Shown: positions 1,016 to 51,668 of the stretch, in pieces | How the letters are laid out: each line of letters opens with the position of its first letter | Position numbering within the stretch: the first letter of the stretch is position 1 | NCBI GenBank assembly: GCA_902781465.1 | Contig: CACZJK010000001.1 | Coordinates: 142,831 to 206,830 of the forward strand | Length of the DNA: 64,000 bases | Reading direction: 5' to 3' | From: an uncultured Pseudomonadota bacterium | Lineage (GTDB): Bacteria; Pseudomonadota; Alphaproteobacteria; Rs-D84 | The notes under the pieces: model-generated | Databases searched by the model: none | The model's input: the letters and a program-made list of their open reading frames with translations, nothing else | Told to the model about the DNA's origin: nothing | Position numbers and translations under genes: made by a program

Positions 1016-1017
1016 TA

Positions 1018-2637: not shown

Positions 2638-2641
2638 GACA

Positions 2642-3712: not shown

Positions 3713-3789
3713 AAACAAGCAAAATAAATTATAACAGCACATCTGCTTGTCGTTATTGCGTTCATGTACCTTTGTGTACACTTCACTTA

Positions 3790-3882
3790 ATAACAACGGC
3801 GCATCTGCGCCGTTCTAATTTATTTTGACGAAGAGGTTGGTTTTTTTCTTTAATTTTTTAAACGGCGCAGATGCGCCGTTCA
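3790..3882. terminator. Two 20-bp GC-rich palindromes, AACGGCGCATCTGCGCCGTT (3794-3813) and its exact reverse complement AACGGCGCAGATGCGCCGTT (3862-3881); bidirectional terminator pair between convergent genes
   Basis: Perfect 9-bp stems read directly; T-runs follow on both strands; lies between the + operon ending at 3712 and the - gene ending at 3910. Confidence 0.5.
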
Positions 3883-3909
3883 AATTTGTTTTTTTGTAAT
3901 CGGTTATTT

Positions 3910-4479
3910 TTACACAATAAATGGTAAATTTTCCAGTGTTCCTTCGGTGACGCGGACGTTAACGTCGATAAGCATAAACACTGAATCTGGTGTTTTTTCG
4001 ATATTACACGGGAAAAGGTCAGGTGATAATAAATGGCTGGTATTAACGTTTAATCTTGTCACCAGATGGTCGTCGTCCAATAATGTATAAATTGGCCCGA
4101 TATCGCGTGGTGTGTTTTGACCGATTTCGTGTTCGTTTTGTGGACAACGAAGGCCGTCCAGTATAGTTTTAACGCGATTATCAATATCAGAGTGTGGAAC
4201 GCCTACGATTTCTGGGTGCATTAATAAAATATCTAATTCTGCAATCATTTTAAGGTTTGGACTGATAATCGGATTCCAATCAATACCGCCAATATGACGC
4301 GTTATAACAGGGCTTTTTTTTGCGTCTGGCATCATAAATTTAGTCAGGTTATTCCAAGGTTGCAGGGTCACCAATTTTTTTAACTGCGGATGAAATTGCA
4401 TGCGAATATCAGCAATATGTTGCGCCCTTTTTTTAGGGTTAGTCAATATATCGCCATAGTATAAAAGTTTGAATTTCAT
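3910..4479 (-). CDS. Hypothetical protein (189 aa)
   Basis: Clean ORF with ATG start; no recognisable motif. Confidence 0.5.
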   Translation of the reverse strand: MKFKLLYYGDILTNPKKRAQHIADIRMQFHPQLKKLVTLQPWNNLTKFMMPDAKKSPVITRHIGGIDWNPIISPNLKMIAELDILLMHPEIVGVPHSDIDNRVKTILDGLRCPQNEHEIGQNTPRDIGPIYTLLDDDHLVTRLNVNTSHLLSPDLFPCNIEKTPDSVFMLIDVNVRVTEGTLENLPFIV

Positions 4480-4573: not shown

Positions 4574-6973
<2,400 letters not shown>

Positions 6974-6981
6974 TAAATAAT

Positions 6982-6997
6982 GCCGGGTTTTCCCGGC
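6982..6997 (+). terminator. Rho-independent terminator hairpin GCCGGGTTTTCCCGGC followed by a T-run (after gyrB)
   Basis: Stem-loop plus TTTTT read directly; the same hairpin recurs at 10207-10222. Confidence 0.6.
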
Positions 6998-7010
6998 ATT
7001 TTTCAAATAA

Positions 7011-7685
7011 ATGAATAATATGTTTTCTAAATCTTGGTTTGAAAGTCTGGATACACAATTGCGTGAAATGGGCCTGGACAGTGATGATAAATCTTTTGAT
7101 GAAATCAAAGAAATTTTATCTTGTCCGCCACATCTTTCCTCTGATGATTTTGCAAGTACAGTTTCTTATGTAATTTTGGCAGGTGGTTTTTCACAAAAAA
7201 CTGCAAAAAGAATTCATAAAATTATTATGGAAAAAATGCCAGAAAACCCGGGTGTTGATGAATTGTTAAAAATATTTAATAACAAAAATAAAATAAATGC
7301 CATTGTTAAAATTTGGAATAGTCGTGAATCTTATAGGGATGGTTTTTATAAATGTTCTGGGTTAGAAGATAAATTAAACTATCTTCAAAAATTACCACAT
7401 ATTGGAAAAATTACAGCCAATCATTTGGCGCGCAATCTTGGTGAAAATGTTGTTAAATATGATATTTGGATTCAACGTCTTGGTGTTCTGTACGGCGGAA
7501 ATCCTGGGTTATACGACAAAATAGACAATGGAAAACTGGATGCCGATATAAAAAAATGTTGTGATGATATGTTTGAACATTTGCATAAAGAAACTGATTT
7601 GCCAATTGGGTATATTGATGTCGTATTGTGGAAAAGTTGTCAAAACGGATTAATCAAAGAGTTAAAAGATGGATGTAAAAATTGA
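7011..7685 (+). CDS. Helix-hairpin-helix protein, possibly an HhH-GPD-superfamily DNA glycosylase
   Basis: HhH motif [20 protein letters not shown]; no Fe-S cysteine cluster; sits next to ung. Product call is weak. Confidence 0.4.
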
Positions 7686-8334
7686 ACAATCTTGGAAAGA
7701 TGTTTTAAGCACAGAATTCGAAAAAGAGTATTTTAAAAAACTGACTGATTTTGTGCGCGGGGAATATATTTCCGGGAAAACAATTTATCCAGAACCAAAG
7801 AATATATTCAATGCGTTTAATTTGTGTCCGCTTTACAATGTAAAGGTTGTTATTATTGGGCAAGATCCGTATCATGAACCGGGTCAGGCGCACGGTCTTT
7901 GTTTTTCTGTGGAACAAGGAACTGATTTCCCACCGTCATTGCAAAATATATATAAAGAAATTGAATCTGATTTGGGGCATAAAAGTATTACAAATGGCGA
8001 TTTGTCAGCATGGGCACGCCAGGGTGTTTTGTTGCTGAATTCTACTTTGACTGTTCAGGCGCATATCGCTGCTTCGCACAGTGGTAAAGGTTGGGAAACT
8101 TTCACAGATTCTGTTATTCGTGCTGTAAACGAAACCCAAAAAAATGTTGTTTATATGCTTTGGGGATCTTTTGCCCAGAAAAAGGCAGAATTCGTAGATG
8201 CACAAAATAATTTGATATTAAAAAGTGCGCATCCATCACCATTATCTGCATATCGTGGATTTTTTGGTAATCATCATTTTTCACGCGCCAATGAATACCT
8301 TGTCCAAAATGGCAAAAAGCCAATAGATTGGTAA
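7669..8334 (+). CDS. ung: Uracil-DNA glycosylase (family 1)
   Basis: Canonical motif [18 protein letters not shown] and C-terminal HPSPLS motif. Confidence 0.9.
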
Positions 8335-16881: not shown

Positions 16882-17489
16882 CAGGTTTTGACTGTGCAAA
16901 AATGCGTAAAGTGTTGGTGGGGAAATTTTGAATTTTCTGGCTATTTTGGTCTTTGGCATGTCTTTGGCATACCTTGTTTTATCATATTTATTATTTTGTT
17001 TTCGTTGCCATCGATTTTATGATGCGTGTTTTTACTGCCAAAACGCCGCCCAAGAATCACACCTGCTTCGCGACGGCGCGCCAAGGCTTCACGTGTGCGC
17101 AGACTGATTAAATCTCGTTCTATTTCTGCGGAAATTCCAAACGCAAAAGCCAATACTTTCGATTGAATATTGTCACCCAATTCATAGCCGTCTTTGACGG
17201 TATAAACATAAGCCCCACATTTCATACAATGTTCCAAAATTCGCATAATCATAAATAATTTTCGGCCCAGGCGCGATAATTCAGAACAGATAATAATGTC
17301 GCCGGTTTTCAGTTTTTTCAAAATTCCACCAAGTGCACGATTATTTGGTTCGACTGTCCCAGAAATTCCAGAATCCATAATATATTTATCTATTGTTATT
17401 CCCATAGATTTGGCCTTGGTTATAATTCCTGTTTTCTGGTTTTCACAGTCTTGTTTATCTGTGCTGACGCGAATATATCCGTATATCAT
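16879..17489 (-). pseudogene. Hin/Gin/Cin-family small serine DNA invertase, frameshifted by an 11-bp tandem duplication; the present ORF (16941-17489) lacks the C-terminal HTH
   Basis: N-terminus MIYGYIRVSTDKQ (catalytic Ser) and resolvase core. The + strand shows GTCTTTGGCAT twice in tandem (16949-16959, 16960-16970). Removing one copy restores ...GMPKTKIARKFKISPPTLYAFLHSQNL* with a Hin-type HTH and a stop at 16879-16881 inside IR-L. Confidence 0.7.
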
Positions 17490-17543
17490 TTTGTTTTCCT
17501 TTTTTTGTGTTGTTATATCCAAATAGGAAAACAAACAAACGCT

Positions 17544-21707: not shown

Positions 21708-22013
21708 TCATGCCTTTGGATATTTTGATTTTATCTCGGCAATTTTTTCTTGCCATTTGTTTGTGTTGTTAACTTTATCCCAATATATCATATCCAGTTG
21801 TTCTGAAATGCTTGGATATTCATTTTGCCTTTTTTCAACGTAAGTTTTTTCTGGTTCAATTGGTGCATAACCTTTGACATACAAAAGTCCATCATATCCG
21901 GTTTCTGTTTCGCCTGTATAAACTTCCATGCCCCATTTTTTTACTCGTTCTTGATTGTTTTTTGTATCAAGCCATTCATTTAATATAAAACTATTTTTTT
22001 CTTTGACTAACAT
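21708..22013 (-). CDS. Small phage-associated protein (about 101 aa), probable tail-fibre assembly/chaperone-type partner; start MLVKEKNS overlaps the upstream stop (TAATG)
   Basis: TAATG stop/start overlap with the tail-fibre-like gene; acidic, W/Y-rich. The six-frame ORF extends further to 22088, inside the upstream gene. Confidence 0.4.
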   Translation of the reverse strand: MLVKEKNSFILNEWLDTKNNQERVKKWGMEVYTGETETGYDGLLYVKGYAPIEPEKTYVEKRQNEYPSISEQLDMIYWDKVNNTNKWQEKIAEIKSKYPKA

Positions 22014-22540
22014 TATAAACTCCCTTTTAACGGAAAAATTTTTAAAGATCTGTCCACGTTGCGACCGCCAACCATTTTCCAATACCACCCTTTTGGAACA
22101 TAAAATTCACCAGAAATTTTAAAAGAACCAGAGCCTGCATTTGATTCACGTAATGTTGTAAAAGTATTGCCATCAGAAGACACACATGGGGCAACATTAG
22201 GATTTCCATCAATGTGATTAGTCTGATAATTAACAACACAATCATAATCTGCTAAATATGTTGTGTCCCAATTCTTACTGACAGGTGCAGAATAATCTGG
22301 CGTTGATAGGTTAGATATAACTTTTTTACCTGTTGTGCTTATGTTATCCATATCTGTATTGGCTTTTGATGTGACGGTTGGTATTTCGCTTTGTTTGGCC
22401 AATTTTATGCCGCCTGCGGTTTCACCATCGTGAACACGTAATGTTTTATTTGTTGTGTCCATGGTGACTTCGCCAATTGCGCCGGTAAAGGCATCATTTT
22501 CCGTCGCTGTTCCGCGACGAATTTGTATTTGTCTTGACAT
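22013..22540 (-). CDS. Small phage tail-fibre-like protein carrying the HylP/tail-fibre N-terminal motif
   Basis: IQIRRGTATENDAFTGAIGEVTMDTTNKTLRVHDGETAGGIKLA matches the conserved N-terminal block of phage hyaluronidase/tail-fibre proteins (…RxxxAxW…L..GE.G.ETDT..lK.GDG). Confidence 0.5.
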   Translation of the reverse strand: MSRQIQIRRGTATENDAFTGAIGEVTMDTTNKTLRVHDGETAGGIKLAKQSEIPTVTSKANTDMDNISTTGKKVISNLSTPDYSAPVSKNWDTTYLADYDCVVNYQTNHIDGNPNVAPCVSSDGNTFTTLRESNAGSGSFKISGEFYVPKGWYWKMVGGRNVDRSLKIFPLKGSL

Positions 22541-27353: not shown

Positions 27354-29351
27354 ATGAAAGATATTGAAAGTATTTTTTCTTTGGAATCTGATTTTGCGCC
27401 GATGGGGGATCAACCAACGGCGATTGCTGAATTGGTTGAAGGTGTCCAAAACGGTAAAAAATCCCAGGTTTTATTGGGTGTGACTGGTTCTGGTAAGACA
27501 TTTACAATGGCCAATGTTATTCAAAATTTAGGGCGTCCGACAATGATAATGGCGCCTAATAAGATATTGGCGGCACAATTATATACGGAAATGAAGGCGT
27601 TTTTCCCGCATAACCATGTGGAATATTTTGTGTCTTTTTATGACTATTATCAACCAGAGGCCTATGTTCCAACCACAGACACATATATAGATAAAGATGC
27701 ATCTATAAACGAACAATTGGATCGTATGCGCCACAGTGCTACGCGTGCCATGTTGGAAGAAAGGGACGTTATCGTTGTGTCATCTGTATCTTCTATTTAT
27801 GGTATTGGGTCGCCAGAACAATACAGCGAAATGAAATTAGTATTGAAAACAGGGGACAAGATATCTGAAAAAGATGTAATGCGTTCCCTTGTTGATATTC
27901 AGTATAAAAGAAACGAAATGGGATTTAATCGTGGTGATTTTCGTGCCCGTGGTGATACACTTGATATATTTCCTTCGCATTCCCAAGACAGGGCCTGGAA
28001 ATTATCCTTTTTTGGTGATGAAATTGACGAGATTTGGGAATTTGATACCTTAACAGGTGGTAAATTACACAAATTGGACAGGATTGTAGTTTATCCAAAT
28101 ACACACTATGCAACACCTATGCCATCTGTATTACAAGCAATAGGGCAAATTCGAACTGATTTGGAAGAAAGATTAAAATACTTTCATGATAATATGAAAT
28201 ATGTCGAAGAACAAAGATTACGCGAACGTGTGAACTTTGATATCGAAATGATGGAATCGACCGGAACTTGTCGTGGAATTGAAAACTATTCCAGATATTT
28301 AACCGGACGCCTGCCGGGCCAACCGCCACCAACCTTATTCGAATATTTACCAAAAGATGCTCTTTTATTCTTGGATGAAAGTCATGTGACGGTTCCTCAA
28401 ATTGGGGCGATGTCGCGTGGGGACAGGGCGCGCAAGGAAACACTTTCTCAATATGGATTTCGTTTGCCGTCTTGTGTTGATAATCGTCCTTTGACTTTTG
28501 AAGAGTGGGATATGTTGCGTCCGCAAACTATATTTGTTTCTGCAACGCCGGCACAATGGGAATTGGAACAATCAAACGGTATTGTAAGTGAACAGGTTAT
28601 TCGTCCAACCGGATTGTTGGACCCGATATGTGAAGTGCGCCCAACCAAAAATCAGGTTGATGATTTGCTCTATACCGTTAAAAAGACCAAAGGACGCGTT
28701 ATTGTCACGACGTTAACCAAGAAAATGGCAGAACAATTAACAGACTATTTTATTGAAAATGGTGTTCGTGCGCGTTATTTGCATTCTGATATTGAAACAT
28801 TGGAACGCATTGATTTATTGCGTGATTTAAGATTGGGTAAATATGATGTTTTGGTTGGCATAAATCTTTTACGCGAAGGTTTGGATGTCCCAGAATGCGA
28901 ATTGGTTGCGATTATGGATGCGGACAAAGAGGGCTTTTTGCGTTCAACACGTTCGTTGATTCAAACAATAGGACGTGCAGCGCGTAATGCAAACGGACGT
29001 GTAATTTTGTATGCGGATACTATAACCGAATCTATGCGTGCTGCGCTGGATGAAACTGCGCGTCGTCGTGAAAAGCAAGAAAAGTATAACAAAGAACATA
29101 ACATAACACCAAAGACTATATCAAAGTCTGTATTCGAAGAAGTTAAAGAAAAAGAAGAAAAAACTGACAAAACCAAAAAATTTGTTTATAGTAAAGATGG
29201 TGGTGTTATGGACGCAGAATCTTTGCGCAAGGAAATCAAGGCACTTACCAAGACTATGCAAAAACATGCCGAGAATTTAGAATTTGAACAGGCTGCTCAG
29301 GTTCGTGATTTGATTCATGCGCTGGAAGATGATTTATTATTGGTGGAATAA
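27354..29351 (+). CDS. uvrB: Excinuclease ABC subunit B
   Basis: [12 protein letters not shown], beta-hairpin [10 protein letters not shown], helicase motifs, C-terminal UvrB/UvrC interaction helix; ATG at 27354 matches the E. coli start alignment (the ORF is open from 27336). Confidence 0.95.
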
Positions 29352-29352
29352 A

Positions 29353-29751
29353 ATGAAAGAATATATATTAAATAATATTGAAGAAACAAGACAATTTGCA
29401 CGTGACTTTGCAAAGACTTTGCATGCACCAGTGACCGTTGCATTGCATGGTGATTTGGGTATGGGTAAAAGTGAAATTGCGCGAACCATAATAAAAACAT
29501 TGCGTGGCGAAGATACCGTGGTGCCAAGTCCGACTTTTACTCTGGTTCAAAATTATGATGGTATTTCGCATTTTGATTTGTACAGAATAGGGGATGCATC
29601 TGAATTGGAAGAAATTGGATTGCGATATGCAATTGATAATGATATTACGTTGATAGAATGGCCTGATATTGCAAAAGATATATTGCCAGAAAATACAATT
29701 CATATTTATATTACACAAAACGGAGATGGTCGTAAATTAGTGATTCAATAA
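29353..29751 (+). CDS. tsaE: tRNA threonylcarbamoyladenosine biosynthesis protein TsaE
   Basis: HGDLGMGKSEIAR P-loop and SPTFTLVQNY motif; starts 2 nt after the uvrB stop. Confidence 0.8.
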   Translation: MKEYILNNIEETRQFARDFAKTLHAPVTVALHGDLGMGKSEIARTIIKTLRGEDTVVPSPTFTLVQNYDGISHFDLYRIGDASELEEIGLRYAIDNDITLIEWPDIAKDILPENTIHIYITQNGDGRKLVIQ

Positions 29752-31521
29752 ACTTTGTACTGCCAATGGAAAATCGGTTGTGTTTGCAAGGTAGGAACCA
29801 CTGACCAATAAATCAGCACCGGCGTTCCAACAAAGTTTTGCGGTTTCTGGATTTATGCCACCATCAACACTGATTATATATTTAAGGCCGTGTTTTTTAC
29901 GTGTGTAATTTAATACTTTTATTTTTTGTAGAACGTTTTCATCAAATTCTTGACCTGCGGCGCCTGGTTTAACAGCCATTAACATTACTTCATCAATTTG
30001 TTTCAAAATTGGTATTAAAATTTCAACATTTGATTCTGGATTAAGGGCGATGCCAACGCGTTTCCCCGCATCTTTTACAATTTTAATTGCGTTTTTTACC
30101 CCGGATGTATTTGTTGAAATTATAACGGTATCTGCACCAACGTTTATTACATCACGCGCCCAAACAGATGGGCTTTCTGTCATTAAATGAACATGTAAAT
30201 GCGATTTAGTTTTTTCACGTATGTTTGCCAATTCATCAATGCCACCGGCAATTTTATCTACATAAAATCCGTCCATTATATCAACGTGTATCATTGAAAT
30301 TCCGGCACTTTTAAACATTGTGTATGTTGACATATCGTTCATGTTAAAGCAAAGCGTGCTTGGCAATATCGGAACAAATTTATGTTTTTTTACTTTTGGT
30401 TTATGTTTAAAAAGATGTGTTATTTTATCAATAGTATTATGTATTTTTTCGCGTTTTTGTATATAAGCATTTCTTTCTGGTAAATATGTGTTCCAGATAT
30501 ATTCTGACAGGGCGTTGACGCTGGCGCTGTCCCCCAGGTTTTCCACAGGCAACTTAAACACGCGTTCAAAAATAGTATTGATATTATTTACTGTTGCGCC
30601 ACCGCCGGTCAGTATTATTTTTTCAGGTTTATATTGTTCAATATATTTAATAGATTGTTCGTGTATATTTCGCAGCAATTCTTTTATACAAGGAATAAAT
30701 ATATCATTTATATCAGCACGTGAAAATGCGGCAAATTTTTCAGAAGAATCGGCCGGTGTAAATCTGTCCATTTCATTTGGTGTTGCGCATGCGACGGATA
30801 TTTTTAATGTATCGGCATCCACAGTTCCAATATGTAATCCAGATGCAATAGCATTTGTAATATCGTGTCCACCAAACTTTATTTTATTAAAATATAATGG
30901 TCCACGCATAGTCCATATAGATACTGTTGTAAATTCGTTCCCCAGGTCTATGAACATAACCTTTTCATTTTGACGGCGATAAATTGAATTTTGTAAAAAT
31001 GTTGGGTCTAAGAATCCGCTGGATTGAATATGCGAACGGCGCAAGATATCAGATAAATATCTTGTTTTATCTGTTTCGTATGAAATTACACTGAATATAG
31101 ATTTTAATTGTGTGTCGATATGTCCAATTGGTGTATTGCTGATATTTTTTATGGTTGGCGTGCTGTAAAACACAGGAATTATATGCATTGCATAAAAATC
31201 ATCAGGCACAGTTATTTTTGCAATTTGATGTTTTAAATCCAGTTCGTTGATTTTATGTTCATCATGCCAAGATATTGTATCAGAAACTGTTTTGAAATCA
31301 GCCGCCCCAAAATTACCAGTAATAAATGCTGAATTAAAATGAGTGTTTAATTGTTGTTCCAGTTCATCAATAACGCTTTTTAGTGCAAATATAGTGTTTG
31401 TGTTTTTTACAAAGTGCATCGCAGATTGAACTATTTTTGCATCCCGAACACAATGCGCCAATCCGCGAACGCCATAGGTTCCAATATCAAGACATAAAAA
31501 AGAAGAATTAGCAAGCCTCAT
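29737..31521 (-). CDS. In-frame fusion of an FtsA-like actin-fold cell-division protein (about 385 aa) with ribulose-phosphate 3-epimerase (about 205 aa)
   Basis: N-part: LCLDIGTYGVRGL, FIDLGNEFT, GGHDITNAIA, ILTGGGA (FtsA phosphate/adenosine motifs), directly downstream of ftsQ. C-part: ILPSTL…HVDIMDG…HLHVHLM…ISVDGG (Rpe catalytic His/Asp). There is no stop between them; the junction is A-rich (…KHKPKVKKHKF/VPILPS). Confidence 0.6.
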   Translation of the reverse strand: MRLANSSFLCLDIGTYGVRGLAHCVRDAKIVQSAMHFVKNTNTIFALKSVIDELEQQLNTHFNSAFITGNFGAADFKTVSDTISWHDEHKINELDLKHQIAKITVPDDFYAMHIIPVFYSTPTIKNISNTPIGHIDTQLKSIFSVISYETDKTRYLSDILRRSHIQSSGFLDPTFLQNSIYRRQNEKVMFIDLGNEFTTVSIWTMRGPLYFNKIKFGGHDITNAIASGLHIGTVDADTLKISVACATPNEMDRFTPADSSEKFAAFSRADINDIFIPCIKELLRNIHEQSIKYIEQYKPEKIILTGGGATVNNINTIFERVFKLPVENLGDSASVNALSEYIWNTYLPERNAYIQKREKIHNTIDKITHLFKHKPKVKKHKFVPILPSTLCFNMNDMSTYTMFKSAGISMIHVDIMDGFYVDKIAGGIDELANIREKTKSHLHVHLMTESPSVWARDVINVGADTVIISTNTSGVKNAIKIVKDAGKRVGIALNPESNVEILIPILKQIDEVMLMAVKPGAAGQEFDENVLQKIKVLNYTRKKHGLKYIISVDGGINPETAKLCWNAGADLLVSGSYLANTTDFPLAVQSLLNH

Positions 31522-32207
31522 TTTCTTGTTTTAACCAAAATTCTGGCGTTATCGCGCATATCGATTATTTCAATATCGCGTGATAATAATTTATGTGTTT
31601 GGTTCAATGTCTTTATTTTATTTACTGCGACACTTGGATTGTTTTCTGGTAAATATATTGTTATGCCGTTTTTAGTGTGTATATTCCAACGACGTGATTC
31701 AATCATATTCATATAATCAATATATTCAGATAACCCAGATACGCCGTTTATGATTTCTGTTAAATTTTCAGGAATTGTTCCCTGGAAAACAATAGTGTTT
31801 GTGTTGCGTTCTGTTGTTGGGGTATCTATTTTTGTTCCGTCCACAGACAAAGGATAATAATAAACACCGTCAAACCATTGGGCAGCAACCTTGTGTTGTT
31901 CGGTTTTTATAATAATGTCGCCATTGGCCAGGCGGCGAACGGACGAATTTTTTATCCCAGGAATTTTTGAAACCCGATGGTTTATTTGATACAAATCAAC
32001 AGATTTTATATTTGTTCCACTGTTTATGCCAGTTGCAACCATAATAGGTTCAAAATCTGTTGTCTTGGAATCACTTAATATCGAGATATGCTTTACATAA
32101 GATACAGGACCGCGTCCCATAAGACTGGTTATAATACGGGTTGAAAAATACACCGCCAATATAATTGACGCAACAAAATACAACCAAAAGAATATGGATT
32201 TCTTCAT
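31518..32207 (-). CDS. ftsQ: Cell-division protein FtsQ (POTRA domain)
   Basis: N-terminal TM; SSVRRLANGDIIIKTEQHKVAAQWFDG and IDMRDNARILVK blocks typical of FtsQ; 4-nt overlap with the ftsA-like start. Confidence 0.65.
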   Translation of the reverse strand: MKKSIFFWLYFVASIILAVYFSTRIITSLMGRGPVSYVKHISILSDSKTTDFEPIMVATGINSGTNIKSVDLYQINHRVSKIPGIKNSSVRRLANGDIIIKTEQHKVAAQWFDGVYYYPLSVDGTKIDTPTTERNTNTIVFQGTIPENLTEIINGVSGLSEYIDYMNMIESRRWNIHTKNGITIYLPENNPSVAVNKIKTLNQTHKLLSRDIEIIDMRDNARILVKTRK

Positions 32208-32256: not shown

Positions 32257-32637
32257 TTATTTTGCACGCAGCAAATAACCGCGTCTTAACATACATTTAC
32301 GGTAATAACCGACTGTTTTTGATGCGGTATTAGGTGGCACAGACAATAATGCGCGTTGGCCGACATCTTTATATTCGTTCGATTGAAATGTCACCCAAAG
32401 ACCGTCCCAATCTGGCATTTGTGCGCTTTGATTAGGAGATAACAATTTTGCGATTCTGGAACGCGGTACATAATTTTTGTCTTTTATCCCAAGGCAAGAT
32501 TTATGATCGCGAACGAATTGTTCTGTGGTCACCGCGTCGTTTTCCCAATTTAATATTGTTGCGTCGTCAATCGAGCCACGATTAGCAGAAGCACAGGCTG
32601 TTAATCCTAATAATAAAAATAAATATCTTGTTTTCAT
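32257..32637 (-). CDS. Small lipoprotein (lipobox LTAC), hypothetical
   Basis: Signal peptide MKTRYLFLLLGLTAC. Confidence 0.5.
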   Translation of the reverse strand: MKTRYLFLLLGLTACASANRGSIDDATILNWENDAVTTEQFVRDHKSCLGIKDKNYVPRSRIAKLLSPNQSAQMPDWDGLWVTFQSNEYKDVGQRALLSVPPNTASKTVGYYRKCMLRRGYLLRAK

Positions 32638-32712
32638 AATTTACATTATAATTTAATTGCGTTTGTGTGGCAATAGTTTTTATAATGTAAAAAACAAACC
32701 AGGGGAAAGGCA

Positions 32713-33036
32713 ATGGCAATAAATGTTCAAAATTATATAAAATTGGCTAATTTTTATAACGAAATGTCGCGCATTTTATCTGCGATTTGTGTGGAAAAGG
32801 GCGGAATTGCGCTGGAAAATTATGTTGGACGCTTTTTTGCGGCAGATGTCCTTGAATATATCGTAGAATATGGAAACAGGCTTAAAAAATCTGGTGTTCA
32901 AATTGATTCAAATGTTATAGATGCGATGAATTTATTTGAAAAGCAGTTTGAAAATGTAAAAAGTTTGGTGACCCCAAACCAAAAACCTATTTACGAAATG
33001 TCGTTGGAAGAGTTTGAAAAAATTATGAATATATAG
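32713..33036 (+). CDS. Hypothetical protein (107 aa)
   Basis: ORF only. Confidence 0.4.
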   Translation: MAINVQNYIKLANFYNEMSRILSAICVEKGGIALENYVGRFFAADVLEYIVEYGNRLKKSGVQIDSNVIDAMNLFEKQFENVKSLVTPNQKPIYEMSLEEFEKIMNI

Positions 33037-33074: not shown

Positions 33075-34403
33075 ATGGCACAAAACAATATTAAACAAAC
33101 CCTTGTTCTTGTTTGTACAATGTGTGCAATGATGATTTCTGGGTGTGCAAATCAGCAACAAAATATGCAACTTTATGATACAGTCAATGTTGTTGAAAAT
33201 ACTGTGATTGATGAAAATTCTGTGCCTATCTTTCCAAAAAAGGCAGCATTGACAACTGATACAGCGCAAAGATTTGCTTTGGATTTACCAAAAAGATGTA
33301 CGGTTGATTGGAATAACCAGAGTGTCGTAAGTGTTGTCCCAGAAGAAAAGATAGAAATTGTTCGCCTTAATACAGGGGACGATTTGCCTGATTTAAAGGT
33401 TTCTGATTATGAATTCAAAAAAATGTATGTGAAAGATGCACTGGAAAAATTATTAGATGATACAGATATTTCTGTCATAGAAGACCAGGCTACATTTGAA
33501 AAGATTTCTGGAACAATTTCAACCAGTTCTTTGGCTGATGCGGTTGAATTGATGGCGAAACTTGGTCGTGTGTATTATTCTTATGATGCGGAATTTGGTG
33601 AAATTCATTTAACAGGTAATGGTAAATGGATGATAAAAATGCCAAAAGACGAAACAATCATAATGGCTCTGTTGGATGCTATGCGTGGGGCCGATGTGCG
33701 TAATTTGTTGGTGAACTGGCAAGACAAAACCGTTGTATTCGAAGGAAATTATCAAACAGAACGCGAAGTTTCAAAAATAATTGCAGATGTTGCGTCCAAA
33801 AAATATGTTTTGGCATGGGACATAGATGTTTATCGTGTTTATCCAAAAACAGATAATCCTATTATTTGGATGAATATGTTGCCTGCATTTGGTGAAAATA
33901 ATATTCGTATGTCTATTCCTGGGGTTGTGGGGCGTGCGCTGGTGGTAAGTCCTGAAATCAATACAAAAACTTTGCAAGAATTTATATCACAACAGGCAAA
34001 TATGGTTTTGGTTTCCCAAGGAACATTTGCGATCCCAAACGGATGGCAATCCAGATTTGATATTGGCCAATGTGGCAAAGAAGACAGATTAGAAACTGAT
34101 TTGATAATTGGTGCAACGGGAACTTATGGCAATTATGGTGGGTATAAAAAGATTGATGCAAAAATAGTTTTATCAACAACTAATGGCGAATTGTCTTCGT
34201 TTAAGATACCATCTAATGTTGGTGATAATTATGTGATTGTTGGTATTCCTACACACTCTTTTGTCACAACACCTGAAACTTTGATTTCACCATTTGCTGA
34301 ATTGGTTGTATTTATGTCGCCACGTTTAATATCTATTGTTGATGCCGGCGAAGCAGGCAAGGTTTTGTCTGGTGATGATTTACGTGATTTTTTGAATCAA
34401 TAA
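33075..34403 (+). CDS. Large lipoprotein (lipobox ISGC), hypothetical; upstream of lolCD
   Basis: Signal peptide with lipobox; 442 aa; no firm family. Confidence 0.5.
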   Translation: MAQNNIKQTLVLVCTMCAMMISGCANQQQNMQLYDTVNVVENTVIDENSVPIFPKKAALTTDTAQRFALDLPKRCTVDWNNQSVVSVVPEEKIEIVRLNTGDDLPDLKVSDYEFKKMYVKDALEKLLDDTDISVIEDQATFEKISGTISTSSLADAVELMAKLGRVYYSYDAEFGEIHLTGNGKWMIKMPKDETIIMALLDAMRGADVRNLLVNWQDKTVVFEGNYQTEREVSKIIADVASKKYVLAWDIDVYRVYPKTDNPIIWMNMLPAFGENNIRMSIPGVVGRALVVSPEINTKTLQEFISQQANMVLVSQGTFAIPNGWQSRFDIGQCGKEDRLETDLIIGATGTYGNYGGYKKIDAKIVLSTTNGELSSFKIPSNVGDNYVIVGIPTHSFVTTPETLISPFAELVVFMSPRLISIVDAGEAGKVLSGDDLRDFLNQ

Positions 34404-46867: not shown

Positions 46868-48460
46868 ATGAATATGTATCAAGTGTTCAAGCAAGTGGCG
46901 AAAGAATCGCCAGATGCTTTGTTTCTGGTACGCGAAAAAATCACTTTCAAAAAAGCGTTATCAATGATTCATGCACGTGCAACTGCATTGCACAAGATGG
47001 GGGTGAAAAAAGGCGATGTTGTTGGTTTGTTATCGCATAATATACCTGAATTTCCATTGACTCTTTTCGCGATATGGTATTTGGGTGGAACTGTTTTGTT
47101 GCTGGATACAAATTTAACACCGTTTGAATATGACAATATGACTAAATTGGTTAAGTGTAAATTTGTATGTGCGGAAAAATCTTTTTTCTATAAAGCAAAA
47201 GGTTTCAAGTTCTTTGATATTCAAACCCCAGATGAAAAGGCTGATTCTAAATTAAAACCGGCAGAATTAGACGAAAATGATATTGCGACTTTATCATTTA
47301 CGTCTGGTTCAACTGGCAATCCAAAGGTTGTTCCGTTAACACATGGTAATTTGAAAAATTCTTCTGATTATTATGCAGATATGGGCGATTGGATTCATAA
47401 AAATGAAATAATGTATGGATTTTTACCATTGTATCATATCTTTGGTTTTGCGGCTGGTATTTTGGCACCAATGTATTTTCATATGGGAATATTATTACAA
47501 CCAACAGTCAATCCGCGTAATATCTTGGAAGATTTCAAGATTTATAAACCACATTGTATTCCTGCGGTTCCGCGCCTTTATGAAGTTTTTCGTAATAAAA
47601 TTATCGAAGGCGTCAAAGAAAAACGCATGTGGTGGTTCGTATCTTTTGTGTTAAAACATCAAAAGTTTTTACGTGCGATTGGTTTGGGCAAGTTGGTTAA
47701 AAAAGTCCAAAAGCCTTTGCGTGATATCTTTGGCGGTCGTGTGAATTTGATGATTGCCGGGGGTGCTGCGACCAAGCCAGAGGTTGAAAAATTCTATGAA
47801 TCACTGGGTATTACCTTTGTCCAAGGCTATGGTATGACAGAAACAGTAGGGCCTTTCTGTTGTTCGCGTCCATCAAAACATCGGGTGCCATTTGCATTTG
47901 GAACACCTATTGGTTGTTCTGAATGTACAATTCGTGATGCCGATGAAAAAGGTATTGGAACGCTTTGGGTTCGTGGACCAAATATCTTCAAAGGCTATCT
48001 GAATAATAAAGAAGCCAATAAAGATTCTTTTGATAAGGACGGTTGGTTTAATACGGGTGACCTTGTTTATCTGGATAAATATAATCAATATCATTTCGCC
48101 GGTCGTAAAAAACAAGTAATTGTTTTGGACAGTGGTAAAAATGTATATCCGGATGAATTAGAAGCATTGTTTATGGAAATAGATGGTGTTAAAAATGTTG
48201 CAGTCTTTGAACATAAAATCAAAGATAAAACTGTCACTTATGCTGTGTTACAAGTTGAAAAGGGTACGACACTTATAAAATTAGGTGCCCAGATTGCACT
48301 GGCTAATCGCAAGGTTGCGCCTTATAAATGGGTGACACACTTTGCAATGACAACTGATGATTTGCCTGTGACCAGTACTCAAAAGGTAAAACATCATCTT
48401 GTGCGTCAGAATTTAATTGATGGAAAATATCCGAATAATACAGAAAATATTTTAAGGTAA
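46868..48460 (+). CDS. ANL-superfamily adenylate-forming enzyme (acyl-CoA synthetase/AMP-ligase-like), paralog 1 of 3
   Basis: Motifs TSGSTGNPKVV (A3), GYGMTET (A5), GWFNTGDL (A7), GRKKQVIVLDSGKNVYPDELE (A8). Confidence 0.8.
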   Translation: MNMYQVFKQVAKESPDALFLVREKITFKKALSMIHARATALHKMGVKKGDVVGLLSHNIPEFPLTLFAIWYLGGTVLLLDTNLTPFEYDNMTKLVKCKFVCAEKSFFYKAKGFKFFDIQTPDEKADSKLKPAELDENDIATLSFTSGSTGNPKVVPLTHGNLKNSSDYYADMGDWIHKNEIMYGFLPLYHIFGFAAGILAPMYFHMGILLQPTVNPRNILEDFKIYKPHCIPAVPRLYEVFRNKIIEGVKEKRMWWFVSFVLKHQKFLRAIGLGKLVKKVQKPLRDIFGGRVNLMIAGGAATKPEVEKFYESLGITFVQGYGMTETVGPFCCSRPSKHRVPFAFGTPIGCSECTIRDADEKGIGTLWVRGPNIFKGYLNNKEANKDSFDKDGWFNTGDLVYLDKYNQYHFAGRKKQVIVLDSGKNVYPDELEALFMEIDGVKNVAVFEHKIKDKTVTYAVLQVEKGTTLIKLGAQIALANRKVAPYKWVTHFAMTTDDLPVTSTQKVKHHLVRQNLIDGKYPNNTENILR

Positions 48461-48472
48461 GGAATAGAAATT

Positions 48473-50053
48473 ATGACAATGTATGAATTACTGGAAAAAA
48501 CAGTAAAAGAAAATCCAAAGACTTTGTTTTTGGTTCGTGAAAATGTCACTTTTGCAGAATTCCCAAATTTGGTAAAAGCACGTGCGGCAACTTTACATAA
48601 TTTGGGTGTTAAACCAGGTGATGTTGTCGGTTTGCTTTCGCATAATATACCTGAATTTGTATCAACATTGTTCGCAATATGGTATCTGGGCGGAACAGTT
48701 TTATTGTTGGATACAAATCTGGCATCTGCGGAATATGAAAATATGACAGAACGCGTTGGTTGTAAATTTGTATGTGCGGAAAAATCTTTTTTCTATGAAA
48801 CAAAAAAATTTAAGTTCTTTGATATTCAAACGAAAGATAAAGGTGTTGACGAATCTTTGAAGCCATATCCATTAAAAGACAGCGATATCGCAACTTTGTC
48901 TTTTACTTCTGGTTCAACAGGAACACCAAAAGTTGTGCCACTGACACATTTTAATTTAGTTTCTTGTTCTGATAATTTGGAATATTTGAATCAATGGTTA
49001 AAACCTGGTGAAATGTTCTATGCGTTTTTACCGCTTTACCATGTGTTTGGATTTGCAGTTGGTTTCTTGGCACCACTTCATTTCGGTATGGGAATATTAT
49101 TGCAATCAACCATCAATCCAAATGCGATTATGGCAGACTTTGCACAATATAAGCCTCAGGTTATACCGGCTGTGCCAAAGTTATGGGAAATATTCCGTAA
49201 AAAGATTATCGAAGGTATCAAAGCCAAAAAGAAATGGGGATTGGTATCTTTCATTATGAACAATCAAAAAATGTTGCGCATGCTTGGTTTGTCGAAATTG
49301 GTCGATAAAGTCTTGAACCAAATTCGCGGTATTTTTGGTGGTCGTGCAAGATTGTTGGTTGCCGGTGGTGCCGCCACAAAACCGGAAGTCGAAAAGTTTT
49401 ATACTCAACTTGGTATGGCTTTCGTTCAAGGTTATGGTATGACAGAAACCGTTGGGCCAATCTGTTGTTCAAGACCGCTTAAAAAACGTGTTGCGTATGC
49501 TTTTGGTGCACCAATGGGCGATAACGAAGTTCAAATCCGTAATAAAGATGAAAATGGTATCGGTATGTTATGGGTCAAAGGCAACCAAATCTTTGGCGGC
49601 TATATGAATAATGATGCGGCCAACAAAGAATCTTTTGATAAAGAAGGTTGGTTCTGCACAGGTGATTTGGTTTGGATGGATAAAAATGGCGAATTGCATT
49701 TTGCTGGTCGTAAAAAACAAGTAATTGTTTTGGACAGTGGTAAAAATGTATATCCTGATGAACTGGAAGGCTTGTTTATCGAAATCGAAGGTGTAAAAAG
49801 TGTTGCCGTATTTGAACATGAAGTAAATGGAAAAACTGTTGCATACGGAGTATTCAGCGTTGAACCAGATATGACAATGGATAAATTAGCAGCCGCCATC
49901 ACAGAAAAAAATAAAAAAGTTGCGTCATATAAATGGGTGACACACTTTGCGATGACAACAGACGATTTGCCTGTGACCAGTACACAAAAAATAAAACACC
50001 ATGTTGTTCGTCAATGGTTGATTGATGGTAAATACACAGACAGACATGAGTAA
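48473..50053 (+). CDS. ANL-superfamily adenylate-forming enzyme, paralog 2 of 3
   Basis: Same motif set; about two-thirds identical to paralog 1 by eye; shares identical DNA stretches (for example GTAATTGTTTTGGACAGTGGTAAAAATGTATATCC). Confidence 0.8.
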   Translation: MTMYELLEKTVKENPKTLFLVRENVTFAEFPNLVKARAATLHNLGVKPGDVVGLLSHNIPEFVSTLFAIWYLGGTVLLLDTNLASAEYENMTERVGCKFVCAEKSFFYETKKFKFFDIQTKDKGVDESLKPYPLKDSDIATLSFTSGSTGTPKVVPLTHFNLVSCSDNLEYLNQWLKPGEMFYAFLPLYHVFGFAVGFLAPLHFGMGILLQSTINPNAIMADFAQYKPQVIPAVPKLWEIFRKKIIEGIKAKKKWGLVSFIMNNQKMLRMLGLSKLVDKVLNQIRGIFGGRARLLVAGGAATKPEVEKFYTQLGMAFVQGYGMTETVGPICCSRPLKKRVAYAFGAPMGDNEVQIRNKDENGIGMLWVKGNQIFGGYMNNDAANKESFDKEGWFCTGDLVWMDKNGELHFAGRKKQVIVLDSGKNVYPDELEGLFIEIEGVKSVAVFEHEVNGKTVAYGVFSVEPDMTMDKLAAAITEKNKKVASYKWVTHFAMTTDDLPVTSTQKIKHHVVRQWLIDGKYTDRHE

Positions 50054-50087
50054 GTTTTAACAAAAAGATATAAAGGTAGGTATTAAA

Positions 50088-51668
50088 ATGAATATGTATC
50101 AAAAATTAGAAAATGCAGTTGCACAATGGCCTGAAAATTTATTTTTGGTTCGTGAAAATGTCACTTATTCTCAATTCTTGGAACAAGTGCGCGCACGTGC
50201 TGCAACTTTGAACAAGGCCGGTGTGAAACACGGTGATGTTATTGGGGTATTGTCACATAATTTGCCACAATTTCCATTAACTCTGTTCGCGATTTGGTAT
50301 TTGGGTGCAACAGCATTGATGTTGGATACAAATCTTACACCATTGGAATACGATAAAATGTGTGAAATTGCAGGTTGTAAATTTGTTTGTGCAGAACCTT
50401 CGTTCTTTTACAAGACGAAGCAATTTAAATTCTATGACATCACAAAGAAAGACGGTGCAATCGATTATGATTTAAGACCTTATCCATCTGAATCAACAGA
50501 TGTTGCAACAATGTCTTTCACATCAGGATCAACAGGAACACCAAAAGTTGTGCCATTAACACATTTTAATTTAACAGAATGTGCAAATTCTTTGGAAGAT
50601 ATGTCAGATTATTTCCATTCAGGTGATGTTATGTATGGATTTTTACCATTGTATCATATCTTTGGTTTTGCGATTGGTATTTTGGCAACTGTTCATTATG
50701 GGGCATCATTGGTTTTGCAACCAACAGTCAATCCTAAATACATTTTGGACGATTTCAAGAAATTCCAACCTCACGTTATACCGGCTGTGCCACGTGTTTG
50801 GGAATTGTTCCGTAATAAAATTGTCACAACAATGAAAGAACAAGGCAAATGGCGCGTTGCATCTTTTATTTTAAGAAATCAAAAAACATTGAAAGATATG
50901 GGTTTGGAATTTTTTGTTCGCAAAGTTCAAGAACCAATTTTAAGTGTTTTTGGTGGACGCGCTAAATTATTGATTGCCGGTGGCGCTGCGACCAAACCAG
51001 AGGTTGAAAATTTCTATGAATCTTTGGGTATGGCATTTATCCAGGGTTATGGTTTAACAGAAACTGTTGGGCCAATCTGTATTTCAAAACCAACAAATAA
51101 AAGATTGGCTTATTCGATTGGCGCCACAACATCTAACAATGAATTCCAAATTCGTGATAAAGACGAAAATGGTGTTGGAACATTATGGTTGCGTGGACAT
51201 CAGGTATTTAACGGCTATCTGAATAATCCAGAAGTTAACGCCGAAGTTTTTGATCAAGATGGTTGGTTTAACACTGGCGATATGATGTACACGGATAAAA
51301 ATGGTGAATTACATTTTGCCGGCCGTAAAAAACAAGTAATTGTTTTGGACAGTGGTAAAAATGTATATCCTGATGAATTGGAAGGTTTGTTTATCGAAAT
51401 ACCTGGCGTTAAAAATGTAGCAGTCTTTGAACACAAAGTAGGTGATAAAACTGTTGCCTATGGCGTATTCAGTGTCGATAAAGAAATGACAATTGATAAA
51501 TTGGCCAAAGAAATTGCAGAACAAAATAAAAAGGTTGCATCTTATAAATGGGTGACCCATTTTGCGATGACAACAGAAGATTTACCAATGACCAGCACAC
51601 AAAAGGTTAAACACCACGTTGTGCGCAAGAATTTGATTGATGGTAAATATCCAGACAGAAAAGAATAA
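50088..51668 (+). CDS. ANL-superfamily adenylate-forming enzyme, paralog 3 of 3
   Basis: Same motif set; tandem with paralogs 1 and 2. Confidence 0.8.
   Translation: MNMYQKLENAVAQWPENLFLVRENVTYSQFLEQVRARAATLNKAGVKHGDVIGVLSHNLPQFPLTLFAIWYLGATALMLDTNLTPLEYDKMCEIAGCKFVCAEPSFFYKTKQFKFYDITKKDGAIDYDLRPYPSESTDVATMSFTSGSTGTPKVVPLTHFNLTECANSLEDMSDYFHSGDVMYGFLPLYHIFGFAIGILATVHYGASLVLQPTVNPKYILDDFKKFQPHVIPAVPRVWELFRNKIVTTMKEQGKWRVASFILRNQKTLKDMGLEFFVRKVQEPILSVFGGRAKLLIAGGAATKPEVENFYESLGMAFIQGYGLTETVGPICISKPTNKRLAYSIGATTSNNEFQIRDKDENGVGTLWLRGHQVFNGYLNNPEVNAEVFDQDGWFNTGDMMYTDKNGELHFAGRKKQVIVLDSGKNVYPDELEGLFIEIPGVKNVAVFEHKVGDKTVAYGVFSVDKEMTIDKLAKEIAEQNKKVASYKWVTHFAMTTEDLPMTSTQKVKHHVVRKNLIDGKYPDRKE

Follow-up and report, generated by a model that had tools for sequence, protein, structure and literature searches.

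The free C-terminal amphipathic helix of FtsA and the oligomeric state of this protein are central to models of Z-ring tethering and divisome activation. Constructs of FtsA in which the membrane-targeting sequence is replaced or dimerizing modules are added have reportedly been built, by Pichoff and Lutkenhaus in 2005 and by Shiomi and Margolin in 2007/2008. Several enzymes moonlight at the divisome, such as UgtP in Bacillus subtilis and KidO/GdhZ in Caulobacter, and the ribulose-phosphate 3-epimerases (Rpe) of bacteria and plastids are hexamers. In canonical FtsA, the free amphipathic helix forms the C terminus, after a hydrophilic linker (PMC4252000), and in Escherichia coli the metabolic enzyme OpgH acts on the divisome (PMC3723540). 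Here, we describe a locus in which ftsA and rpe form a single gene. A literature search returned no paper combining FtsA, ribulose-phosphate 3-epimerase, and fusion, and the descriptive paper on Enterousia/Rs-D84 (PMC12306168) makes no mention of FtsA, FtsZ, or cell division. Databases label the fusion proteins simply "ribulose-phosphate 3-epimerase" or "Rpe." Automated surveys might consequently list Rs-D84 as FtsA-negative and the lineages with a dead epimerase site as Rpe-competent.

The analyzed stretch, hereafter the window, consists of 64,000 nt of contig CACZJK010000001.1, and all coordinates are window positions (Table 1). The initial annotation described ftsQ as overlapping by 4 nt a long ORF in which an ftsA-like gene continues in frame into rpe. 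Both ORFs are indeed present and share ATGA, and the in-frame fusion directly after ftsQ is borne out by Pfam/NCBIfam domains plus conservation among relatives. The fusion protein contains the peptide quoted there, IDKITHLFKHKPKVKKHKF, as well as the motifs ILPSTL, HVD, HLHVHLM, and DGG. As for FtsQ, its hydrophobic N terminus is visible in the translation, and both of its domains score above their cut-offs, PF08478 (POTRA_1) with 24.3 bits vs. 23 and PF03799 (FtsQ_DivIB_C) with 35.2 vs. 21. The fusion gene is tightly coupled to ftsQ: in 33 of 80 species, the end of ftsQ and the ATG of the fusion share 4 nt, and in all others ftsQ stops within 18 nt ahead of that ATG. The synteny is kept even in the deepest relative groups. 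A gene of 123 to 126 aa occupies the same slot ahead of ftsQ in all lineages examined; in the window it has no Pfam or NCBIfam match, and the operon may begin with it. The promoter match ahead of it counts for little, promoter-like sites being as numerous in the region as expected from shuffled sequence.

Table 1. Features of the ftsQ-ftsA::rpe locus, in window positions
Feature	Position	Strand	Remarks
Sigma-70-like promoter	32645..32673	-	Best match TTGCCA-17-TATAAT, 11/12; ahead of the lipoprotein-ftsQ-fusion string
Predicted lipoprotein gene, 126 aa	32257..32637	-	Signal peptide with Cys; directly 5' of ftsQ
ftsQ, 229 aa	31518..32207	-	N-terminal transmembrane helix, POTRA domain, FtsQ/DivIB C-terminal domain
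ftsA::rpe fusion CDS, 594 aa + stop, about 66 kDa	29737..31521	-	
FtsA module, aa 1-346	30484..31521	-	Subdomains 1A, 1C (SHS2 insert, about aa 74-162), 2A, 2B
Long C-terminal helix of FtsA module, aa 347-371	30409..30483	-	DSSP; pLDDT drops from 87 to 71
Disordered polybasic tether, aa 372-384	30370..30408	-	KHKPKVKKHKFVP; joins FtsA to Rpe
A7 run (GTA AAA AAA CAT)	30385..30391	-	Suspected artefact site within the tether
Rpe module, aa 385-594	29740..30369	-	Complete (beta/alpha)8 barrel from strand 1 (ILPSTL)

The absence of ftsZ after ftsA, also pointed out from the sequence, holds over a larger region. FtsZ of E. coli and of B. subtilis, used as tblastn queries, had no match in the 64-kb window, and neither the 10 kb flanking it on the left nor the ±10 kb around the gene in 81 related loci (1.52 Mb in total) contained an ftsZ. 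The genes ftsQ and ftsA are coupled in 80 of 80 species, and ftsZ is never adjacent in the loci examined. Neither a second ftsA nor a second rpe is present in the window, in the 10 kb to its left, or in any related locus examined, and no division or pentose-phosphate partner genes were found in the window. The window carries scattered housekeeping, LPS, and glycosyltransferase genes. A diversity-generating retroelement (DGR) around an ORF with an Mtd_N domain at 22 kb was considered and rejected, with no TR/VR repeats and no reverse transcriptase.

The fusion is an ancient, genuine gene fusion that has been fixed in the uncultured gut/rumen alphaproteobacterial order Rs-D84. Relatives are encoded by 297 GTDB species genomes ("Candidatus Enterousia"/order Rs-D84), and in the 80 loci examined, which are the best 80 of these 297 species and include a circular long-read metaFlye genome (L054, OZ007020.1), the reading frame is open from FtsA through Rpe without exception. 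The comparison with relatives that had been proposed as a check thus gave the same in-frame fusion in more than 120 clusters and in 80 of 80 species loci. These independent 90% clusters contain full-length proteins of a constant 592 to 594 aa that are 73 to 87% identical. The fusion also occurs in relatives at just 25 to 45% identity and in about 25 divergent representatives of 50%-identity clusters (540 to 623 aa) with SHS2_FTSA, FtsA, and Rpe domains. Genomes of Rs-D84 ("Candidatus Enterousia" and relatives) measure about 0.75 to 1 Mb. Purifying selection acts on every module of the fusion, with dN/dS values of 0.077 for FtsA, 0.136 for the linker (aa 346-384), and 0.056 for Rpe.

The Rpe module is assigned to its family, with 148 bits to PF00834 and 187.1 bits to NF004076 (cut-off 165, over aa 385-588), while it scores below the equivalog cut-offs of both TIGR01163 (158.2 vs. 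212.6) and AlsE (141.5 vs. 271). Foldseek matches it to 2fli with a target TM of 0.92, an rmsd of 1.5 Å, and 33% identity. Among PDB profile scores, those of Firmicutes, cyanobacterial, and plastid Rpes (160 to 205 bits) exceed those of proteobacterial ones (115 to 128), and Rpe crystals are oligomeric, with 6 to 12 chains per entry (2fli, 1tqj, 7b1w, 7u5y). The metal/catalytic residues H412, D414, H445, and D553 are present, as is the Met cushion (M416, M447, and M515). Across the 80 species, HVDIMDG is invariant, HLHVHLM and SVDGGI are nearly so, and H445 and D553 are always kept.

Some deeper lineages have lost these sites. In the very AT-rich P0135/P0274 sub-lineage (about 20% GC), H412, D414, and D553 of Rpe are missing, and a second dead-site form, differently decayed, is found in P0129. 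The nucleotide motifs of FtsA have been lost in the P0135/P0274 and P0141/P0145/P0146 lineages. Nevertheless, the whole fusion protein remains constrained in P0135/P0274 despite the loss of its FtsA ATP motifs. When the dead Rpe modules of P0135 and P0274 are compared, a single pair, they are 80% identical with no indels and a dN/dS of 0.20 (Fisher p=2.7e-12). At about 20% GC, such a frame would stay open by chance with a probability of about 1e-10, off-frame stops occurring every 6 to 40 codons. The constraint on the dead barrel, in this one sequence pair, therefore points to a non-catalytic role, and the Rpe half is probably also structural in division.

It could even be that, in the entire clade, a non-catalytic function is the main target of selection on the barrel, which would be either an oligomerization/scaffold domain or a sugar-phosphate sensor coupling division to metabolism, catalysis in Enterousia being secondary or dispensable. 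We consider this possible, albeit rather unlikely. It would account for both dead-site forms and for the constrained P0135/P0274 protein, OpgH offers a precedent for metabolic enzymes that act on the divisome (PMC3723540), and E. coli pentose-phosphate pathway (PPP) mutants, including rpe, change cell size and Z-ring frequency (PMC5825171). However, the catalytic, metal, and Met-cushion residues are invariant in 80 of 80 Enterousia species and kept in most deep representatives, and no part of the protein is more conserved than the barrel; this is the pattern predicted for an active enzyme. In addition, Rs-D84 reportedly has the genes of the non-oxidative PPP except for transaldolase (PMC12306168).

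Between the two modules, the FtsA core is prolonged by a long helix and a tether (Table 1). A basic amphipathic stretch at the end of the FtsA part had been proposed to be the membrane-targeting helix. The basic part of this proposal stands, the 13-residue tether carrying 4 to 9 K/R, with next to no D/E, in each of the 80 species, i.e., its charge is conserved while its sequence is variable. The amphipathic part is less well supported, since the hydrophobic moment of the helix end IHNTIDKITHLF (0.73) is barely above, and within 1 SD of, that of shuffled sequence (0.61±0.14; the E. coli membrane-targeting sequence reaches 0.78), and the strong claim was downgraded. The helix end, which is weakly amphipathic, is likely a remnant of the FtsA membrane-targeting helix, of which relatives have more canonical versions (e.g., WDYRWVQIKNWFEKHL in P0138). 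It is not at the extreme C terminus: the helix is internal and is followed by the tether, whose pLDDT falls below 50 at aa 372-379, and by the 210-aa barrel.

A neutral by-product of genome shrinkage, in which intergenic sequence between two essential genes was lost and the halves act independently on a flexible tether without synergy, seems unlikely to us. The genomes are reduced, with former dcw genes scattered, and the tether is disordered; a pTM of 0.63 with a mean pLDDT of 90.8 argues that there is no fixed inter-domain packing. Moreover, a new stop, RBS, and start would all have to arise at once to undo the fusion, and an irreversible neutral fusion fits the Enterousia data equally well. 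Yet, a neutral origin explains neither the open frame and the constraint (dN/dS 0.20) of a dead barrel in a gene of 20% GC nor the strictly cationic tether of all species.

Could the fused ORF nevertheless yield two proteins, by internal initiation, by a -1 frameshift at A_AAA_AAA before a TAA, or by proteolysis of the tether? The window has the heptamer in frame with a -1-frame TAA two codons on, 56 of 80 species have ATG or TTG at codon 386, and the tether is exposed and basic and would therefore be accessible to proteases. Against this, a start at the conserved M/L386 is rejected by the non-start codons TTA or CTG in the other 24 of 80 species and by an SD-like motif ahead of it in just 1 of 80. 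A dnaX-like frameshift producing a short FtsA is likewise rejected, the in-frame slippery heptamer A_AAA_AAR being present in the tether of just 26 of 80 species with no enrichment, and the slippery share of KK codon pairs is lower in the tether (0.20) than in the rest of the gene (0.30). Two products are very improbable, although the tether may still be cut after translation; judging from the sequences, there is no conserved signal for separate proteins, and the predicted product is one polypeptide.

As for the FtsA module, it is a highly divergent member of its family. It matches PF14450, and TIGR01174 over aa 46-343, the latter with 81.5 bits, which is below the cut-off of 175.85 and does not reach the equivalog threshold. 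In the AF2 model, it has a pLDDT of about 90 to 96, and its best Foldseek matches are all FtsA (7q6i, 7q6g, 1e4g, and 4a2a; E about 1e-22, target TM 0.70 to 0.74), the alignments spanning 352 to 393 columns with 14 to 19% identity to solved FtsAs. An ASKHA/actin fold with subdomains 1A, 2A, and 2B is supported by both Foldseek and profiles, and 1C (SHS2) is represented by a modeled β-β-α-β-β-α insert (aa 74-162), which falls inside the alignments to full-length FtsA structures. In the Pfam search, the window protein has no PF02491 (SHS2_FTSA) match at E<=0.01, while the fused relatives P0122, P0127, P0138, and P0142 do match it. The nucleotide motifs (phosphate-1 LDIGT, phosphate-2 DLGNEFTT, and adenosine LTGGGA) are present and conserved across the 80 species. 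The four subdomains show pairwise identities of 0.50 to 0.64 (2B 0.53 vs. 2A 0.56). The column matching E. coli R300, which we take to be an FtsZ-tail contact, is variable.

The possibility that the N-terminal domain is PilM, raised at the outset as a possible refutation, or another actin-like ATPase (MreB, EutJ, or a sugar kinase) with a metabolic or pilus role, is highly improbable. There are weak Pfam matches to MreB_Mbl and PilM_2 over aa 184-332, and the TIGR01174 score is under its cut-off. FtsA is nonetheless far ahead in profile searches of the N-terminal module (E=2e-26, vs. 7e-12 for PilM and 4e-12 for MreB) and in fold searches, where its best matches run over about 385 columns, the alignment covers the FtsA-specific 1C insert, SHS2_FTSA is matched in fused relatives, and the gene always comes after ftsQ.

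Finally, the initial annotation cautioned that a one-base error in an A7 run, which it placed at 30330-30345 instead of its actual position (Table 1), might have joined two separate genes: the junction is A-rich, and both alternative frames do meet TAA inside GTAAAAAAACATAAA. Such a sequencing or assembly artefact can be dismissed because the fusion is conserved across hundreds of independent assemblies that share the frame across studies, hosts, and technologies, while the linker differs widely between species, often contains G/C, and changes length by whole codons only, with a longest A-run of 2 to 8 nt that is not conserved; a separate rpe would, moreover, have no start codon.

Our preferred explanation, to which we assign a probability of roughly 0.7, is a genuine ancient Rs-D84 fusion with active halves in Enterousia, an internal hinge, and a barrel that bundles FtsA. 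In Enterousia, both halves would retain their ancestral biochemistry, the FtsA part serving as a membrane-proximal divisome scaffold beside FtsQ and the Rpe part, to judge from its residues, interconverting ribulose-5-P and xylulose-5-P. The former C-terminal anchor of FtsA would have become an internal helix-plus-polybasic hinge on the inner leaflet, and this hinge may keep Rpe at the membrane. Rpe barrels being obligate oligomers, and assuming that the fused one oligomerizes like other Rpes, the barrel probably bundles several FtsA modules, which would provide multivalent membrane binding and fix the oligomeric state of FtsA. Such a structural contribution would keep the barrel under selection where Rpe catalysis and FtsA nucleotide binding have been lost.

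More tentatively, the barrel may be an obligatory part of FtsA, an oligomerization/membrane-proximal hub in place of the free C-terminal membrane-targeting helix, with a pseudoenzyme/pseudo-ATPase remaining where the sites have decayed. If this is true, the actin scaffold of the divisome would physically be a metabolic enzyme, and Rs-D84 would supply the first example in nature of an FtsA whose anchor is internal and which carries a domain derived from an enzyme. A further-reaching form of the idea, in which the clade divides without FtsZ, is less likely.

Rs-D84 thus provides a natural, order-wide variant in which the anchor is internal and FtsA is joined to an enzyme barrel that is normally oligomeric, and in one sub-lineage selection persists after the loss of ATP-binding and epimerase residues. 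The fusion offers a ready-made test of which properties of FtsA are required, and possibly a hard-wired link from central carbon metabolism to division.

Compared with canonical FtsA (E. coli, Thermotoga maritima, and Staphylococcus aureus; 7q6d, 1e4f/4a2a, and 3wqt), the fusion shares the four-subdomain actin fold including 1C (SHS2), largely kept nucleotide motifs, a gene directly 3' of ftsQ, and a helix plus basic region after the core. It differs by its 14 to 19% identity, its score under the TIGR01174 cut-off, the lack of a following ftsZ, and the unconserved R300 column, and its helix is internal, with a polybasic tether that runs on into a 210-aa TIM barrel. Like the Rpe of Streptococcus pyogenes (2FLI), the closest solved structure, the fused module has a complete (beta/alpha)8 barrel, a His/Asp/His/Asp metal site, and a Met cushion. 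Unlike stand-alone Rpe, it lacks a start codon, and its strand 1 comes directly after the FtsA tether; in some lineages it is a pseudoenzyme. As with OpgH, UgtP, and KidO/GdhZ, an enzyme of central metabolism is physically tied to the early division machinery, and a catalysis-independent role is plausible. However, in those cases a separate protein binds FtsZ in a reversible, nutrient-dependent manner, whereas here the enzyme, as known from sequence, is covalently and permanently on FtsA. Last, the fusion resembles the engineered FtsA variants, which reportedly show that the C terminus of FtsA tolerates heterologous modules and has membrane attachment and oligomerization as key outputs; those are laboratory constructs, whereas this one is natural, order-wide, and carries an enzyme barrel.

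The ORF overlapping ftsQ by 4 nt (ATGA) encodes a protein with two clearly separate parts. The shorter ORF of the pair is ftsQ, since POTRA_1 and FtsQ_DivIB_C each match it above the Pfam cut-off. The longer ORF, which contains the peptide and motifs quoted by the initial annotation, matches FtsA through PF14450 (50 bits, residues 190-327) and TIGR01174 (81.5 bits, residues 46-343, below the equivalog cut-off), and Rpe through PF00834 (148 bits) and NF004076 (187 bits, above cut-off, residues 385-588). The top promoter-like site, which is weak evidence, is located ahead of the conserved gene for a predicted 126-aa lipoprotein. At its 3' end, the fusion gene overlaps the convergent tsaE (29317-29751, plus strand) by 15 nt (29737-29751), a tail-to-tail overlap also found in the related loci L001, L093 and L095.

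Features of the fusion locus and of related loci with dead-site fusions (L-numbers denote related loci)
Feature	Position	Strand	Remarks
ftsQ ORF, 229 aa	31518-32207	minus	POTRA_1, FtsQ_DivIB_C
Fusion ORF, 594 aa	29737-31521	minus	FtsA and Rpe family matches
126-aa lipoprotein gene	32257-32637	minus	adjoins ftsQ; no Pfam hit
107-aa protein gene	32713-33036	plus	divergent, ahead of lolE and lolD; no Pfam hit
442-aa protein gene	33075-34403	plus	divergent, ahead of lolE and lolD; no Pfam hit
P0135, P0274	L093:10001-11770, L094:10001-11770, L095:4001-5773		dead-site fusions
P0129	L089:4568-6295		dead-site fusion

The fusion is widespread. Among 5.8 billion proteins clustered at 90%, more than 120 separate clusters (592-594 aa, 73-87% identity) from NCBI, ENA, JGI and Logan assemblies contain both domains. 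When GTDB was scanned with one genome per species, 297 species genomes were found to encode a relative. The best 80 of these are full-length matches (51-86% identity) from rumen and gut samples, with records titled 'Candidatus Enterousia', uncultured Alphaproteobacteria or 'Rickettsiales', and include a circular metaFlye MAG (OZ007020.1, 958,618 bp). In all 80, ftsQ ends either 4 nt inside the fusion gene or at most 18 nt before its ATG. The initial annotation had proposed an in-frame fusion after ftsQ but suspected that an indel in an A-rich junction might have created it. The fusion is real, the frame from FtsA into Rpe being open in 81/81 loci compared. The A7 run exists, although its true position, 30385-30391, is some 50 nt away from the one given, and both alternative frames do stop at this junction. 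Since the linker is the least conserved segment (39% mean identity), with Arg in place of Lys where the species is GC-richer and with indels by whole codons only, the A-run is incidental and the suspected artefact can be discarded.

The fusion also extends to distant lineages. When 1.84 billion representatives were searched exhaustively with HMMER, with residues 1-384 alone as query, about 25 representatives of 540-623 aa (26-46% identity) rank ahead of ordinary FtsAs (400-440 aa), which are first reached at an E of about 1e-12. The long representatives have SHS2_FTSA (the FtsA-specific 1C insert), FtsA and Rpe domains, while the shorter matches are ended by a contig edge (e.g., P0125) or fragment-like. 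Even the deepest groups share one arrangement. One strand carries lolD and lolE together with genes of ~435 and ~105 aa; in the divergent direction come a ~125-aa gene, ftsQ and the fusion, with tsaE and uvrB often next in line. This conserved local synteny indicates a single ancient fusion event. The genes for the 126-, 107- and 442-aa proteins keep their place beside the fusion in all lineages, the deepest ones included. Their products may be envelope or division factors peculiar to the clade.

As for selection, 128 pairs above 80% identity from the 80 species (dS about 1.2) gave dN/dS values of 0.077 for the FtsA module, 0.136 for the linker and 0.056 for the Rpe module. In the latter, HVDIMDG is invariant across the 80 species, HLHVHLM and SVDGGI are nearly so, and the metal/catalytic residues H445 and D553 are kept in 80/80. 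The FtsA motifs LDIGT, DxG…T and GGG are retained, and the four FtsA subdomains are alike in conservation (0.50-0.64 pairwise identity), none having decayed. Column 278, aligned to E. coli FtsA R300, which we take to be a contact of the FtsZ tail, is variable, and column 281 (the E303 equivalent) is acidic in 64/80 species; the variable R300 column is only a lead on this contact. Together, these findings show that the FtsA-Rpe fusion is real, ancient, order-wide, tightly coupled to ftsQ and constrained in all its modules.

An AlphaFold2 model (28-sequence alignment, mean pLDDT 90.8) predicts an FtsA module at residues 1-346 with a 1C-type insert (74-162), a long helix (347-371) in which confidence drops toward the end, a disordered segment (372-384, pLDDT below 50) and a (β/α)8 barrel (385-594). 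The top Foldseek matches in the PDB are FtsA structures 7q6i, 7q6g, 1e4g and 4a2a (E about 1e-22, target TM 0.70-0.74 over 352-393 columns), after which ranks Streptococcus pyogenes Rpe 2fli (target TM 0.92, RMSD 1.5 Å, 33% identity). A single family profile gives 2e-26 for FtsA, 4e-12 for MreB and 7e-12 for PilM. PilM, which the initial annotation had named as the identity that would overturn its reading, is excluded since FtsA leads by both measures. Profile scores of the Rpe module (29740-30369) in the PDB are 205 bits for S. pyogenes and 160-164 bits for plastid/cyanobacterial Rpes, versus only 115-128 bits for proteobacterial ones (Neisseria, Pseudomonas, Stenotrophomonas), a hint that the fused rpe may have come from outside the Alphaproteobacteria.

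In every one of the 80 species, the 13 residues before the barrel include 4-9 K/R and almost no D/E. For the helix ahead of this tether, the hydrophobic moment is 0.73 (E. coli MTS, 0.78; shuffled controls, 0.61±0.14), which makes amphipathicity plausible but statistically not distinctive from shuffled sequence; deep relatives have more canonical amphipathic helices, e.g., P0138 (WDYRWVQIKNWFEKHL). No in-frame ATG or GTG start for a separate rpe is found near the window junction, the sole candidate being TTG at codon 386. This codon is ATG/TTG in 56/80 species and TTA/CTG in 24/80, with an SD-like motif ahead of it in 1/80, which argues against internal initiation. The in-frame A_AAA_AAA, with a TAA two codons on in the -1 frame, is reminiscent of dnaX. 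A dnaX-like frameshift is nevertheless unlikely, because slippery heptamers occur in only 26/80 species and the share of KK codon pairs that are slippery is lower in the tether (0.20) than in the rest of the gene (0.30). Since no convincing internal promoter was found in the fusion gene either, the signals for two products are unsupported and the full-length protein is, judging by sequence, the intended product.

Two forms of the fusion, both very AT-rich (gene GC 0.19-0.20), have lost the Rpe active site. In window-protein numbering, P0129 has H412N and H445N, no DGG aspartate and a deleted phosphate loop, while P0135 has H412Y, D414T and D553C. Both are real, since three contigs, each from an independent sample, carry the identical P0135 sequence, the P0135 locus shows full synteny with the window, that of P0129 is syntenic too, and at about 19-20% GC the probability that a module of 209 codons remains open by chance is about 1e-10. 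The other five frames of the dead-site module contain 5-37 stops. P0274, from the same lineage as P0135 and 75% identical to it, has the same dead-site residues. The two Rpe modules are 80% identical without indels, and this single pair gives a dN of 0.103, a dS of 0.511 and a dN/dS of 0.20 (46.5 differences per 125.5 synonymous versus 48.5 per 504.5 non-synonymous sites; Fisher p=2.7e-12), tighter than the 0.36 of the FtsA module. In both proteins, the phosphate-1, phosphate-2 and adenosine motifs of FtsA are gone as well. Since constraint persists despite these losses, the whole fusion is probably kept as a structural protein in this lineage. The constraint seen in this one pair is the strongest evidence that the barrel serves the FtsA part beyond catalysis. 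In a deep, GC-richer group (P0141, P0145 and P0146; e.g., L090:10001-11695, locus GC 0.49), the aspartates of the FtsA phosphate-1 and phosphate-2 motifs are gone (LDIG to IYPG/IYFG, DLG to NLG/HLG) with the Rpe site intact, the reverse of a simple 'FtsA plus passenger enzyme' prediction.

In Enterousia, both ancestral activities would persist, because the catalytic residues are invariant. Alongside this invariance, it is rather unlikely that the barrel is selected across the whole clade chiefly as a scaffold or sensor, as the dead-site pair might suggest. A purely neutral, irreversible fusion is slightly less likely again, set beside the constraint on the dead barrel. In our preferred reading, where an active enzyme also serves division, the helix and polybasic tether would form an internal membrane hinge and the barrel could cluster FtsA modules, since Rpe barrels are hexamers or dimers and Rpe PDB entries are crystals with 6-12-chain assemblies.

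As the initial annotation had remarked, ftsZ is missing here: there is no match in the 64-kb window, in the 10 kb past its left edge, in the 81 related loci or among the Pfam labels of deep-lineage loci. The left flank (L085) does contain lpxK-lpxC, without ftsZ, at 6289-8125, some 2-4 kb before the window begins, with a VirB4-like gene nearby. Since lpxC usually comes after ftsZ in Alphaproteobacteria, this genome has a dispersed dcw cluster. The remaining window genes are scattered housekeeping genes. At 46868-51668 (plus) lie three AMP-binding (acyl/aryl-CoA ligase-like) paralogues in tandem, each 526-530 aa long, and the distant relative L082 has two similar tandem copies (573-4053). A 175-aa ORF with an Mtd_N (major tropism determinant N-terminal) domain (22013-22540, minus) lies about 5 kb from a serine resolvase gene (16941-17534, minus) in a glycosyltransferase/LPS region; neither DGR-type repeats nor a reverse transcriptase were found near it. 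Genes for a PilO-like protein, a 221-aa unknown, T2SSE (ATPase) and T2SSF (platform), at 350-3712 (plus) and L085:8709-9989, form a predicted type IV pilus or T2SS-like cluster in a reduced genome.

Genomes of the host order, Rs-D84, are reduced (about 0.75-1 Mb) and encode MreB, RodA, MrdA and a non-oxidative pentose-phosphate pathway minus transaldolase, in a description that is silent on FtsA, FtsZ and cell division (PMC12306168). Our literature search found no paper joining FtsA, Rpe and fusion. The sources name the fusion proteins only 'ribulose-phosphate 3-epimerase', as in the 590-594-aa NCBI and JGI entries (P0034, P0097, P0115, P0122, JGI). Surveys that go by protein name will therefore miss the FtsA half, and metabolic reconstructions may count dead-site fusions as functional Rpe. 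We know of no previous physical link between the pentose-phosphate pathway and division. In E. coli, the two are linked physiologically, in that Δrpe cells are small and Z-ring frequency no longer follows growth rate in pentose-phosphate mutants (PMC5825171). Both components belong to known families; what is new is the architecture, with its internal anchor, enzyme barrel and pseudoenzyme retention. While canonical FtsA runs from core through a disordered hydrophilic linker to a terminal amphipathic helix (PMC4252000), the order in the fusion is core, helix, polybasic tether and barrel.
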